The translations under genes were made by a program, and so were the position numbers. This document shows positions 14,331-34,746 of a stretch of 40,996 bases of DNA, piece by piece. Origin of the DNA: Candidatus Sungiibacteriota bacterium (GTDB lineage Bacteria; Patescibacteriota; Minisyncoccia; Sungbacterales; HO2-52-23); NCBI GenBank assembly GCA_016181585.1, contig JACOYX010000025.1, positions 1 through 40,996 on the forward strand, in the 5' to 3' direction. The notes under the pieces were generated by a model. It was given only the letters and a program-made list of their open reading frames with translations, did not search any database and was not told the DNA's origin. The number at the start of each line of letters is the position of its first letter. The first letter of the stretch is position 1.

Positions 14331-14364
14331 AATATCTTTTTGATACCAAATTTTACATAAATCA

Positions 14365-14397
14365 AAACCGCCGGGAGAACCATGCGGCGGGTTTTTT
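14365..14397 (-). terminator. Bidirectional-looking hairpin terminator downstream of the 14498 gene
   Basis: AACCGCCG-loop-CGGCGGGTT with A/T runs on both sides. Confidence 0.55.
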
Positions 14398-14821: not shown

Positions 14822-15199
14822 ATCCGTAAAATTAATATAATAGATTCTATTTTCTCGTACTAACTCATTTAAAAAGTCGCCTCGTCAGTATATTTACGAC
14901 TTCGCTCGAACCTACTTTATCAAAAATTCCTAACGCTGTGAACGCCTCCGCGCCCCGCCAAAGGCGGGGCTACGCCTCAACAAAATTTTCTTTTCAATTT
15001 TTCTGATTTCGCACTCCACCCCCACCAAAAAAAATGGCACTTATAGCATCCTTATTTGTGGAGCATCTTACATGCTATCAAACTCTGGTAAAAACGCAAC
15101 AACATAATCCACCTTTTTTGAAACAGGTTCTAATCTCGTTTTACGGGCATAAATAGTCAGTTTCTGGCTGATTTCTTTTTTAAAAAACCATCATTATCG

Positions 15200-15567: not shown

Positions 15568-15639
15568 AGCGGGTAGGGGGAATCGAACCCCCATGTCTTG
15601 CTTGGAAGGCAAGTGCACGAACCATTGTGCTATACCCGC
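15568..15639 (-). tRNA. tRNA-Gly (anticodon UCC)
   Basis: Cloverleaf by hand: acceptor GCGGGTA/TACCCGC, anticodon arm CTTGC-CTTCCAA-GCAAG, T arm GGGGG-TTCGATT-CCCCC. Confidence 0.9.
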
Positions 15640-15643
15640 AATT

Positions 15644-16315
15644 TTAAACTTGCGATAGAGCCCCGAGCATCCACCCATTCATTCTTCTATATAATTGCAC
15701 ACCTTTTTCTTTAATACCTCCGCTGATGACTGCAATATGGGCTGTCCCGTACGGTAATTTATTTCTTTTTATTTTTGACTTATTTTGTCTTAGATCTATC
15801 TGCGTTTTTCTAAAATTTCCCCTTGGCGGTTGTGTCGCTTCACTCCAAAAGTTGATACACTCTTCTAAATTATTATCCAGATAGAGGTGTAACGTAACAG
15901 TAATATTTTCATTTGCCAAGCCACAAATCTTTTTAAACCACTTAACCGCCAGCTTGATAACCGATGGATCAGAATTAATTATGCGAATTTTTTCGAAAGC
16001 CTTGGTTCCTTCACCAATGTATAAACCCAAACCCAACAGCCACAAATCCCTTTCTGAGAACTTACCCACCTCTCTTGTGCCAACTTGTTTTAGTTTTTGA
16101 ATCTCACGAACTTTTCTATTATGACTTTTTTCTGCGCTTTTTACCGGCCCGTACTGTATTCTTTTTAGTACTTCTATATTCGGTTTAAACGGTCTATCTC
16201 TAAACCAATTGCTCAATGTACTTTTTGCAATCCCGATGTGCTTGTAAATCATGTTGTAAGAGTATCCGGCATCTCGTAATTTCTCAGCCTCCATTTTAAA
16301 CGGATTTCTATTCAT
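15644..16315 (-). CDS. HTH + LAGLIDADG-like protein (putative homing-endonuclease-related), paralog of 34027..34746
   Basis: N-terminal HTH (GYSYNMIYKHIGIAKSTLSNWF) and a LAGLIDADG-type motif (LWLLGLGLYIGEGTK). Its stop lies 4 nt before the 5' end of tRNA-Gly. Confidence 0.65.
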   Translation of the reverse strand: MNRNPFKMEAEKLRDAGYSYNMIYKHIGIAKSTLSNWFRDRPFKPNIEVLKRIQYGPVKSAEKSHNRKVREIQKLKQVGTREVGKFSERDLWLLGLGLYIGEGTKAFEKIRIINSDPSVIKLAVKWFKKICGLANENITVTLHLYLDNNLEECINFWSEATQPPRGNFRKTQIDLRQNKSKIKRNKLPYGTAHIAVISGGIKEKGVQLYRRMNGWMLGALSQV

Positions 16316-16457
16316 AGCACTACCATATCATAATAAGTATACTGGTTCAGGTACTATTATACACAATAAATTACACAATCAAAGTATATTTTAATTTTTG
16401 CAATTGAGCAAATTATTTTTTGCAATATTTACCAGTTTCTTTTATCATGAACACAAT

Positions 16458-17984
16458 ATGAATATAAAAAATTCAATTGTATTGACTGTTTGTATTTTTT
16501 CTGCTACGGCTTTAGTTCTCTATCTTAAGGACAATATAAGAGACATAACAGACATTTTACCAAGTTCTATCCCCTCTTCTCTCGATGTCCTTAAGCCGAT
16601 TGATAGTAAATCATTCACCATAAAAATGGACGAAACAGGTTTTCGCCCTCAAGATATTGAAATCAAGCAGGGTGATACGGTAGTTTTTGAGAACACCGGG
16701 AAAAAACCGCATTGGCCTGCTTCCAATATTCATCCAAGCCATCAGATCTTTCCGGAGTTCGATCCTAAAAAAGAAATTCTATCGGAAGAGAAATGGAGTT
16801 TCACGTTTTACAAAAAAGGTGAATGGAGATTCCATGACCATTTGGATCCACAGTTTTCGGGCTCTATTCAGGTGCAAGAAAATAAAAAGATTGAAGATTC
16901 AGATGCAAATACAGAAGTATCCGGAGAGAAAATGACTACACCTGAAAACCCTAAAAATGTAGATGCAATGCTTGCACAGGTTAATATGATGCAAATTGCA
17001 AAAAAGGACGATGAACTGCGTATCTGGCTTAAGCGTGCGGGGGCAAAAAAAGTAATGGACAAATTACTCAAAGACTCCGACGGTGGTGCTACCGTGGATT
17101 GCCATCAAGAATCGCACGCTGTGGGAAGAATTGGATATGAGTTATATGGCCCCTCGGTGTTTCTTGATGGAACAGCGGCGTGTCATTCTGGTTATTATCA
17201 TGGTGCAATGGAAACTTTCTTAAAAGAAAAAGGTACACAAAATCTTGCAGAAAGTGTTGCAGAAGTTTGCAACAAATTTCCTACTAGTTTCGGCATATTT
17301 GAATGTTTACACGGTGTAGGGCATGGGGTGGTGGCATACCAAGATTATGATCTACCTAAAGCTCTTGAGACATGTGGAATGCTAAAGACTGATTATGATC
17401 GTAACTCTTGCTACGGGGGAACATTTATGGAGAATGTTGTGGCGGCACAGGGTATGGGGGCTATTGTCGGTCATGGAACTAAATGGGCGAACAATATCGA
17501 ACCACATTTCCCTTGCAATAAAATAAACCAAGAATTTAATATCCAATATCAGTGCTATCAAATGCAGACCAGCTGGATGCTTACTATATACGGCTACGAC
17601 TTTGCCAAAGTCGCACTCGAATGTCTTAAAGCGCGAGCAGATATGATATTGGTGTGTTTTAAGAGTTTTGGACGCGATGCGGCAGGACATACCCTGCGAA
17701 ATCCACAGAAAATCGTGGAACTTTGTGCCAAAGTTCCACATGAAACAGCAGATTATTATGAACAGTGCATTATTGGTGCGGTTAATGTGATTATAGATTT
17801 TTGGGGAGATGGCCTAAAACAGCAAGCTACGGACTTATGTAAGCTAGTAGATGGAAAAGGTAAAAAAATATGTTATTCTACAATAGCGTGGAGAATAAAT
17901 GATATTTTTACAGCAAAAGAAAGCAAAAAATATGTTTGTGAAACGTTTGAGGATGGATATAGGAATCTTTGTACGGTGAATTAG
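16458..17984 (+). CDS. Membrane-anchored cupredoxin-like domain protein with a C-terminal Cys/His-rich repeat domain
   Basis: ATG 16458 (MNIKNSIVLTVCIF..., TM anchor). Cupredoxin-like stretch FTIKMDETGFRPQDIEIKQGDTVVFENTGKKPHWPASNIHPSH...HDH. This is followed by about 340 aa with 17 Cys and recurring CxxxHGxGH-like units. Confidence 0.6.
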   Translation: MNIKNSIVLTVCIFSATALVLYLKDNIRDITDILPSSIPSSLDVLKPIDSKSFTIKMDETGFRPQDIEIKQGDTVVFENTGKKPHWPASNIHPSHQIFPEFDPKKEILSEEKWSFTFYKKGEWRFHDHLDPQFSGSIQVQENKKIEDSDANTEVSGEKMTTPENPKNVDAMLAQVNMMQIAKKDDELRIWLKRAGAKKVMDKLLKDSDGGATVDCHQESHAVGRIGYELYGPSVFLDGTAACHSGYYHGAMETFLKEKGTQNLAESVAEVCNKFPTSFGIFECLHGVGHGVVAYQDYDLPKALETCGMLKTDYDRNSCYGGTFMENVVAAQGMGAIVGHGTKWANNIEPHFPCNKINQEFNIQYQCYQMQTSWMLTIYGYDFAKVALECLKARADMILVCFKSFGRDAAGHTLRNPQKIVELCAKVPHETADYYEQCIIGAVNVIIDFWGDGLKQQATDLCKLVDGKGKKICYSTIAWRINDIFTAKESKKYVCETFEDGYRNLCTVN

Positions 17985-34015: not shown

Positions 34016-34089
34016 TGGCGGGGGCACTAGGATTCGAACCTAGATCGTTCGTTTTGGAGACGAAAATTCTGCCGTTGAACTATACCCCC
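34016..34089 (-). tRNA. tRNA-Trp (anticodon CCA), 3' CCA encoded
   Basis: Acceptor GGGGGTA/TGCCCCC, discriminator G, then CCA. Anticodon arm TTCGT-CTCCAAA-ACGAA, T arm CTAGG-TTCGAAT-CCTAG. Confidence 0.88.
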
Positions 34090-34746
34090 CATTTTTTCCA
34101 AAAATATTGTTGCGGTGGCTAACAGCTCTCTGGCTGTCTGATTACTATGATAATAAATTGTACTGCATCCAGGATAGTTTTTTCGAATGCGTTTTCCCGT
34201 ATGTGGTTTCAAAAAAGGTTTAATGAATTGATTCTTGGGAATGCGAGCCACGGATGACCAAAAAGCAATTTGTTTTTCTGTCTTGTGATATTCGTGTAAA
34301 TGCAAACAGACCCGGATTTTGGACTCATCAATAGGAAATGACCTTCGGAAAAGCGTAAGAAAAGTTTTAATTAATTGAGGATCTGAATTGGTGAAGCGCA
34401 CTCCATTAAAAGTATTTTTAGCGCCCTCACACCAATACAGAAGAGAACAAATCAGTTTGCAAATAGTTTTATCAAAATTAATATCTTGCAGGTCGTTTAT
34501 AGCCTGTTGTTTATAGCTCGCAATAATCTGCTCGGTCTTTTTTCGTTTGTTTTCTGCCGAAATAAGTTGTCCAAGCTTTATTTTTGTAAGTAATCTTTCC
34601 CGCGCAGAATTGGTAAGGGATATATTCCGAACCCAAACAGAAGCACTGCCTTTGGCTACCCCCAGCTCTTTTACAATTTCATTTAGAGAGTATCCTTGTT
34701 CTCTTAATGAGATGGCACGTCGTTTTTCTTCTATTTTTCGTTTCAT
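34027..34746 (-). CDS. HTH + LAGLIDADG-like protein, paralog of 15644..16315; its 3' end overlaps tRNA-Trp
   Basis: HTH GYSLNEIVKELGVAKGSASVWV and LAGLIDADG-type LICSLLYWCEGAK. The last 20 sense codons and the stop (34027-34089) are tRNA-Trp sequence. Confidence 0.6.
   Translation of the reverse strand: MKRKIEEKRRAISLREQGYSLNEIVKELGVAKGSASVWVRNISLTNSARERLLTKIKLGQLISAENKRKKTEQIIASYKQQAINDLQDINFDKTICKLICSLLYWCEGAKNTFNGVRFTNSDPQLIKTFLTLFRRSFPIDESKIRVCLHLHEYHKTEKQIAFWSSVARIPKNQFIKPFLKPHTGKRIRKNYPGCSTIYYHSNQTARELLATATIFLEKMGGIVQRQNFRLQNERSRFES

Follow-up and report, generated by a model that had tools for sequence, protein, structure and literature searches.

Why should a protein-coding gene end almost flush with the 5′ end of a tRNA gene, and why should its paralogue in the same genome run into another one? 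The question is raised by contig JACOYX010000025.1 of a Candidatus Sungiibacteriota bacterium, a stretch of 40,996 nucleotides (nt) hereafter referred to as the window, in which two open reading frames (ORFs), ORF A and ORF B, adjoin the genes of tRNA-Gly(UCC) and tRNA-Trp(CCA), respectively. We propose, with a probability that we put at roughly 0.6, that ORF A is a free-standing LAGLIDADG homing-endonuclease gene lodged in the 5′ leader of tRNA-Gly(UCC). This proposal is based on the fold of its product, the conservation of the LAGLIDADG motif, the adjacency to tRNA genes, the match between protein clades and tRNAs, the patchy distribution of the family and one genomic block that is younger than its flank. 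The window corresponds to contig C23 of the source genome (G000), which is of the Patescibacteria/Candidate Phyla Radiation (CPR) type and comprises 867 kb in 31 contigs (86% complete).

Two paralogous genes at tRNA 5′ ends

ORF A (15644–16315, on the minus strand, like the other features of the locus unless stated otherwise) encodes a 223-residue protein consisting of a helix-turn-helix (HTH) domain and a single-motif LAGLIDADG endonuclease-like domain. It starts with ATG and ends with a TAA codon (15644–15646), which is separated from nucleotide 1 of tRNA-Gly(UCC) (15568–15639, placed by both ARAGORN and Rfam) by the four nucleotides AATT (15640–15643), exactly the same-strand spacing described in an earlier note made from the letters of the window. 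As detailed below, this tRNA is the cognate tRNA of the whole ORF A clade. On its other side, ORF A is preceded by a promoter-like site (TTGATT, 15 nt, TATAAT; 16356–16382) read by eye; a promoter scan reported neither a promoter nor a terminator on the minus strand here, this site escaping it because of its 15-nt spacer. ORF A stands alone between the promoter-like site and the tRNA: Rfam, the only matches of which in the window are tRNAs, finds no intron there, and the locus contains no integrase or other cargo.

The paralogue, ORF B (34027–34746, minus strand, 239 residues), goes beyond mere adjoining, since it extends 63 nt into tRNA-Trp(CCA) (34016–34089), which contains its last 21 codons and its stop codon. 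No leftover tRNA fragments were found near ORF A or ORF B in the window. The two proteins share 32% identity over 169 residues (E 4e-21) in an alignment that takes in the HTH as well as the L..LY..EG.K motif, which bears out the paralogy suspected in the earlier note; no further copy of the family is present in the 867-kb genome. The same note had argued that two tRNA-adjoining paralogues were unlikely to be a coincidence. The genomic background bears this out: only 7 of the 729 ORFs of at least 150 amino acids in G000 end between −100 and +50 nt from the start of a same-strand tRNA, and three of these seven are LAGLIDADG genes, so that the adjacency of ORF A and ORF B to tRNAs is far beyond chance.

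ORF A is predicted to be an HTH-containing LAGLIDADG endonuclease

A profile built from 55 family members matches the homing endonuclease I-DmoI with an E value of 2.8e-5 over 64 residues, across the LAGLIDADG motif, and the PADLOC 'HEase' model with an E value of 0.005. The family consensus GLYlgEGsKt is aligned to GLYVAEGDKT in I-DmoI, so that Glu102 and Lys105 of ORF A correspond to Glu117 and Lys120 of I-DmoI, the residues mutated in the PDB entries I-DmoI E117A and Q42A/K120M. In ORF A, the motif helix DLWLLGLGLYIGEGTK is encoded by positions 16001–16054, with the Glu102 codon at 16010–16012 and the Lys105 codon at 16001–16003. Among 92 copies of the family, the glutamate is present in 91 (the remaining one having an aspartate), the glycine that follows it in 91 and the lysine at +3 in 83.

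The AlphaFold2 model of ORF A, computed with the family alignment as input, has a predicted local distance difference test score (pLDDT) of 96 and displays three short helices (residues 5–15, 20–27 and 31–37), a long helix (47–83) and a domain (88–221) with the alpha-beta-beta-alpha-beta-beta-alpha topology that is the fold of solved LAGLIDADG members. The HTH DNA-binding domain (residues about 5–42; 16190–16303) is assigned from the model, from structural matches and from Pfam matches to HTH_3 and HTH_26 that are weak and below the cut-off, NCBIfam likewise yielding HTH matches below threshold only; the linker helix (residues 47–83; 16067–16177), the C-terminal part of which takes part in the predicted dimer interface, is assigned from the model; and the endonuclease domain (residues 86–223; 15647–16060) is assigned from the I-DmoI profile match and from VIA-align, a structural alignment against representatives that was needed to reveal it. 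For residues 86–223, VIA-align returned the TliVMA intein endonuclease (Z 7.5), WhiA (Z 7.1), I-DmoI (Z 6.9), I-Vdi141I (Z 6.5), I-CeuI (Z 5.8) and I-MsoI (Z 5.3), a moderate range of Z scores; for residues 1–42, it returned HTH domains of the resolvase, Tc3 and TrpR types (Z 4.4–5.2). Foldseek, run with the full-length model, gave nothing at E ≤ 0.001, though I-DmoI entries appeared with probabilities of 0.96–1.0. ORF A matched no GIY-YIG domain in Pfam or PHROGs, and no match was found among phage records. Altogether, the architecture put forward in the earlier note, an HTH followed by a LAGLIDADG domain, finds support in the I-DmoI profile match and the predicted fold, though without a Pfam LAGLIDADG match.

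ORF A is also predicted to dimerise through its motif helices. A model of the two-copy complex obtained an ipSAE of 0.79, compared to 0.00 for the best control. The mark set for a pass was reached by 20 of 30 solved homodimers and by one of 23 single chains used for calibration. Three runs shared at least 97% of the contacts, with a partner pLDDT of at least 79. The modeled interface is symmetric and lies on residues 89–102, with the motif helix at its center and contacts between residues 93 and 93, 94 and 94, 97 and 97, and 98 and 98. Note that this arrangement is of the I-CreI type, so that the good score may partly reflect a memory of solved structures.

The family systematically adjoins tRNA 5′ ends

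An exhaustive search (E ≤ 0.001) retrieved 2,913 family clusters at 50% identity, the named sources of which are CPR lineages; a search for related loci with ORF A alone had returned a single close relative. Of 401 evenly sampled Patescibacteria genomes, 91 contain the family, with one to seven matches each and about 157 places in total. Our census covered 132 of these places, namely the best 92 and 40 weaker matches, and adjacency was measured as the position of the same-strand tRNA start relative to the last base of the stop codon. With tRNAs predicted by ARAGORN alone, a tRNA starts between −98 and +41 nt in 78 of the best 92 copies, and 31 of the 40 weaker ones show the same adjacency, giving 109 copies that adjoin a same-strand tRNA 5′ end. 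Thirteen of the exceptions turned out to adjoin a tRNA-Phe(GAA), tRNA-Asn(GUU), tRNA-Thr(GGU) or tRNA-Tyr(GUA) overlooked by the default mode of ARAGORN because a group I intron splits each of them (loci L016, L017, L021, L025, L035, L038, L074, L077, L154, L161, L164, L174 and L193). The other exceptions are one copy located at a 5′ fragment of tRNA-Ile, two cut by contig ends and seven devoid of a neighboring tRNA. With the intron-split tRNAs recognised, about 123 of the 130 evaluable copies (about 95%) adjoin a tRNA 5′ end; the outcome that the earlier note named as a refutation, a majority of family members away from tRNAs, is thus not what the survey shows.

The junction itself is unusual. 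In 45 of the 78 adjoining copies among the best 92, the ORF overlaps the tRNA gene, and in 30 of the best 92 the offset is exactly −10, which means that the stop codon consists of tRNA nucleotides U8-A9-G10 (or A10). Four of the 13 intron-split cases likewise display an offset of −10. At locus L006 (G319:C6), a member of the Gly-UCC clade described below, the tRNA has C9 for A9, there is no in-frame stop at nucleotides 8–10 and the ORF spans the entire tRNA gene (offset −98). In copies with a positive offset, a TATAAT-like box is often seen by eye between the end of the ORF and the tRNA, so some of these tRNAs may keep a promoter of their own.

About one-fifth of the copies are sandwiched between two same-strand tRNAs, and the order tRNA-Pro(UGG), family gene, tRNA-Gly(UCC) is recurrent within the clade of ORF A. 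The same spacer is filled at locus L116 (G434:C8) by a 229-residue ORF with an IS200/RAYT-like Y1 transposase motif (..LMPNHYH..), identified by eye. At locus L042 (G390:C11), the stop codon of the family ORF is followed after 2 nt by a 5′ fragment of tRNA-Ile(UAU), with the full tRNA-Ile at +105; the fragment looks like a repair or insertion scar. Similar tRNA-like remnants were seen at loci L064 and L188.

Protein clades follow tRNA isoacceptors

When a maximum-likelihood tree built from the first 92 copies is labelled by adjoining tRNA, the protein clades follow the isoacceptors, with 28 label changes compared to 68 in shuffles and none of 200 shuffles as low. The Gly-UCC clade, to which ORF A belongs, is monophyletic and its 14 members all adjoin tRNA-Gly(UCC); two more such copies are present in relatives. 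Further clades are tied to Gly-GCC, Ile-UAU, Met-CAU, Gln-UUG, Val-GAC, Trp-CCA, Lys-CUU and Arg-CCU, and the family as a whole displays at least 25 tRNA specificities. This match between clades and isoacceptors strongly supports the suggestion of the earlier note that the family targets or travels with tRNA genes.

Mobility and vertical inheritance

The presence of the family across the 401 genomes is patchy and its copy number varies within genera. Among genomes of the same family or order as G000, 3 of 18 tRNA-Gly(UCC) loci are occupied, and the locus is unoccupied in G428, the nearest relative (tRNA 96% identical, NusA 69%). The relationships between occupied loci do not follow those of the hosts either. 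ORF A is 68% identical to its counterpart in G441, which belongs to another family, and 61% identical to that of G241, from another order, compared to 45% for G414, which belongs to the same family as G000; NusA gives the opposite order, with 64% identity for G414, 62% for G441 and 55% for G241.

The most telling sign of movement comes from a comparison with contig JACQAU010000034.1 (locus L001). An 805-nt block (window positions 16368–15564), which contains part of the promoter-like site, ORF A, tRNA-Gly and four further nucleotides, is 88.3% identical in the two contigs, with about 0.5 synonymous (dS) and 0.05 nonsynonymous (dN) substitutions per site in the ORF and hence a dN/dS of about 0.1. 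The adjacent syntenic 528-codon gene is 68.5% identical, with 45% identity at third positions and a saturated dS, and there is no homology between the contigs past the tRNA 3′ end. The promoter–ORF–tRNA block is therefore of much more recent origin than the DNA around it, as would be expected if it had been left by homing or gene conversion. The 528-residue neighbor (16398–17984, plus strand) is a membrane-anchored protein rich in cysteine and histidine and encoded divergently from ORF A, with 62% protein identity between the two contigs. Note that the metagenome-assembled genome holding JACQAU010000034.1 is labelled Deltaproteobacteria; the contig is probably a mis-binned CPR contig.

Several observations weigh against the homing-endonuclease proposal. 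ORF A matches no LAGLIDADG model in Pfam (LAGLIDADG_1, _2 and _3 included) or NCBIfam. In two same-genus or same-family genome pairs, the gene is as diverged as its flank (73.7 versus 73.4% and 70.7 versus 68.6%), which indicates long vertical inheritance. The copies are mostly intact, only a few of the approximately 157 matches carrying stop codons, and this intactness, together with a dN/dS close to 0.1, exceeds the conservation expected of a purely selfish, fixed endonuclease gene. The tRNA sequences track the host rather than the endonuclease tree, and the tRNA is thus not obviously carried along over long distances. DNA cleavage and the target site are predictions, and no empty-site allele was seen in the genome comparisons. 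Finally, the occupied allele retains an intact tRNA gene, which the enzyme would have to spare.

The comparisons made in search of an empty site were as follows. G000 has only the tRNA itself in common with G428, G407, G401 and G419. Between G256 and G284, synteny breaks at the gene–tRNA pair of the tRNA-Gln copy, and a second locus in these genomes, like the one compared between G298 and G376, gave scattered or short matches only. Between G059 and G003, the stop codon of the ORF is the exact point from which homology resumes, the ORF being swapped for about 480 nt of unrelated non-coding DNA, which does not make a clean empty site. No degraded remnants of the family were found in unoccupied tRNA-Pro/tRNA-Gly spacers, and no joint skipping ORF A was found in the contigs of four DNA runs from one study, contigs which are in any case unable to prove its absence. 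Most occupied tRNA-Gly alleles read U8-A9-G/A10, whereas U8-C9-G10 prevails in unoccupied relatives; this difference is confounded by phylogeny, and no position cleanly discriminates between the two sets.

Altogether, these comparisons suggest a long vertical residence with occasional horizontal replacement. The vertical component raises the possibility, in our view an unlikely one, that the protein is no longer a mobile nuclease and has been domesticated as a DNA-binding protein that regulates or maintains the neighboring tRNA gene. Such a protein would be comparable to WhiA, which likewise combines a LAGLIDADG fold with an HTH and is among the best structural matches of ORF A; the inheritance in the two related genome pairs, the intactness of most copies and the low dN/dS would all fit a domesticated gene. 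However, WhiA is broadly conserved and lacks catalytic acidic residues, whereas the catalytic Glu, Gly and Lys are nearly invariant in the family studied here. Moreover, a family found in only 23% of the genomes, with a copy number that varies within genera and with close relatives devoid of the gene, speaks against domestication, and the copy in the window is younger than its flank. We therefore favor the homing-endonuclease proposal.

A second LAGLIDADG family and intron-split tRNAs

The third tRNA-adjoining LAGLIDADG gene of G000 lies outside the window (C8:9289–10089; locus L123:1790–2590). It is located between tRNA-Thr(UGU) and tRNA-Tyr(GUA), ending 18 nt inside tRNA-Tyr, and its product contains an HTH and two motifs (Pfam LAGLIDADG_3, E 1.9e-11), with no detectable similarity to the ORF A family beyond the HTH. 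This two-motif LAGLIDADG_3 family is present in 32 of the 401 genomes and adjoins tRNA-Tyr, tRNA-Ser or tRNA-Gln(CUG) on the same strand at 23 of 24 loci. Since an unrelated LAGLIDADG family shares the habit of ORF A, the tRNA leader is a general niche for such genes in the phylum.

Group I introns split many tRNA genes of Patescibacteria, and the four species already named for the census exceptions are the ones concerned. Matches to the Rfam intron model RF00028 were found in 62 of 151 sampled genomes, including two in G000 (C12:6301–6532 and C6:834–1066). We considered collaborative homing with tRNA group I introns as a rule for the family and rejected it as unsupported: none of eight intron-bearing tRNAs picked independently by intron score has a family gene upstream. 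In addition, most adjoined tRNAs are intronless.

These data also bear on the idea that the protein acts on RNA, namely on the mRNA–tRNA precursor from which it is itself translated, in the manner of a maturase or as a processing factor, for instance in the splicing of introns or the maturation of the tRNA 5′ end. In favor of this idea, group I intron maturases are known among LAGLIDADG proteins, 13 of the 132 adjoined tRNAs carry group I introns, and wherever the stop codon is located within the tRNA, as it often is, the ORF and the tRNA must be transcribed together. Still, we consider this idea quite improbable: besides the preponderance of intronless tRNAs and the eight intron-bearing tRNAs without an upstream gene, the DNA-binding HTH and the conserved metal-binding glutamate favor DNA cleavage, and the distribution of the family is too patchy for a needed processing role. 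Even less credible is an indirect adjacency, in which the gene would be the cargo of another tRNA-integrating element or tRNA neighborhoods would simply collect insertions: tRNA genes are known insertion hot spots, and the Y1 transposase ORF of G434 sits in a tRNA-Pro/tRNA-Gly spacer, but no integrase or other cargo accompanies ORF A, the clades are isoacceptor-specific and the census largely refutes this explanation, about 95% of the copies lying on the 5′ side and the same strand of a tRNA, a few nucleotides from it or overlapping it.

How ORF A may work

According to the homing-endonuclease proposal, the ORF A protein would act as a homodimer, in which the packed motif helices would place two Glu102/Lys105 sites above a single DNA target, while the two flanking HTH domains would help the nuclease read a long, partly symmetric site. 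Because the clades are tRNA-specific, we infer that this recognition site is located within the cognate tRNA gene or right next to it. The tie between clades and isoacceptors suggests that the conserved tRNA gene serves as the recognition site, as a homology arm for repair, or as both, and in clusters the second, upstream tRNA may also act as a conserved homology arm. Lodging flush with an essential tRNA, or overlapping it, would protect the gene from deletion.

Transcription would start from the promoter-like site at 16356–16382 and run through the tRNA, and RNase P would then make the 3′ end of the mRNA; a 3′ end defined by tRNA processing, as considered in the earlier note, fits the anatomy of the locus. 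Where the stop codon consists of tRNA nucleotides 8–10, RNase P cleavage at tRNA +1 would remove it from the mRNA. It is conceivable, though we regard it as doubtful, that the gene–tRNA junction is functional in this respect, with the mRNA stripped of its stop codon being directed to transfer-messenger RNA, which G000 encodes, and the endonuclease being made from the unprocessed precursor only. Should this be the case, the junction would intrinsically limit the dose of nuclease and thereby allow the gene to remain for long periods ahead of an essential tRNA. The clades, taken together, would then amount to a natural collection of at least 25 LAGLIDADG enzymes whose tRNA-gene targets are known and can be named.

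Implications

The family is a very large one of free-standing LAGLIDADG genes in cellular genomes; it is established in the leaders of the majority of tRNA species, each tRNA having its own clade, and often shares nucleotides with the tRNA. If the proposal is correct, selfish nuclease genes thus have a systematic niche in the tRNA leaders of reduced genomes. This would raise the questions of how self-cleavage is avoided, how a tRNA is expressed through a 700-nt coding leader and whether tRNA processing controls the translation of the nuclease. In practical terms, thousands of CPR annotations as 'hypothetical' or 'HTH regulator' would need re-labelling, and gene callers that forbid an overlap between coding sequences and tRNAs will truncate or overlook such genes. 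The family would also be a source of numerous compact meganuclease scaffolds, for each of which the adjoining tRNA strongly suggests the natural target.

Other features of the window

Two short elements were noticed outside the ORF A locus. Within 14881–14961, the contigs of the groundwater run from the source add up to a depth of about 1,300 over a stretch of about 50 nt, compared to about 9 for its neighbors; this stretch is present in many contigs of other organisms, in some of them directly after a tRNA 3′ end, and is a short element shared within the community. A small dispersed repeat of 51 nt (14337–14387) is also found in JACQAU010000034.1 (86% identity) and elsewhere in G000 (C24:33458–33492, 94%).

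Comparison with known systems

Homing endonucleases are, to our knowledge, known mainly from introns, inteins and phages. The type of gene described here is thus known, whereas its niche is new and systematic and the tRNA junction is unusual; the literature that we searched contains no description of LAGLIDADG genes adjoining tRNAs in bacteria, and the family is apparently undescribed.

On the structural side, ORF A shares with I-DmoI and with the homodimeric I-CreI, I-CeuI and I-MsoI the LAGLIDADG core, the motif helix ending in Glu-Gly-x-Lys and, as predicted by our model, dimerisation through the motif helices. It differs from them by an additional N-terminal HTH and long linker helix, by its location at a tRNA 5′ end and by the lack of a Pfam LAGLIDADG match, and it is free-standing, whereas the others are encoded within group I or archaeal introns of rRNA genes. 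The likeness to WhiA, a LAGLIDADG fold associated with an HTH (Z 7.1), goes along with clear differences: in WhiA, the LAGLIDADG domain is present twice in degenerate form and the HTH is C-terminal, whereas ORF A has one domain, an N-terminal HTH, the conserved Glu and Lys and a patchy distribution.

In CPR bacteria, LAGLIDADG homing endonucleases have been described within insertion sequences of 16S and 23S rRNA genes (Tsurumaki et al. 2024, PMC11270868; see also PMC11809585); tRNA is nowhere mentioned in PMC11270868. These genes and the ORF A family have in common the phylum, the superfamily and the residence of selfish genes in conserved structural-RNA genes, but the ORF A family occupies the leader, outside the mature RNA, and often borrows tRNA nucleotides 8–10 as its stop codon. 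In collaborative homing (PMC3984707), a free-standing endonuclease is paired with an intron that lacks an ORF; the 13 intron-split cases are reminiscent of this, but in the general situation the adjoined tRNA is intronless. The closest analogue in terms of lifestyle is SegB of phage T4, a free-standing GIY-YIG endonuclease encoded between tRNA genes and targeting the tRNA region (PMC2988022, Table 1). Both are free-standing endonuclease genes in tRNA surroundings, with a target that in the case of ORF A would also lie in the tRNA region, and the one-fifth or so of family copies flanked by tRNAs on both sides recall the position of SegB; however, SegB is a GIY-YIG enzyme and a single case from a phage, whereas the genes described here are of the LAGLIDADG type, reside in cellular genomes, cover at least 25 tRNA specificities and lie flush with, or overlap, the tRNA 5′ end.

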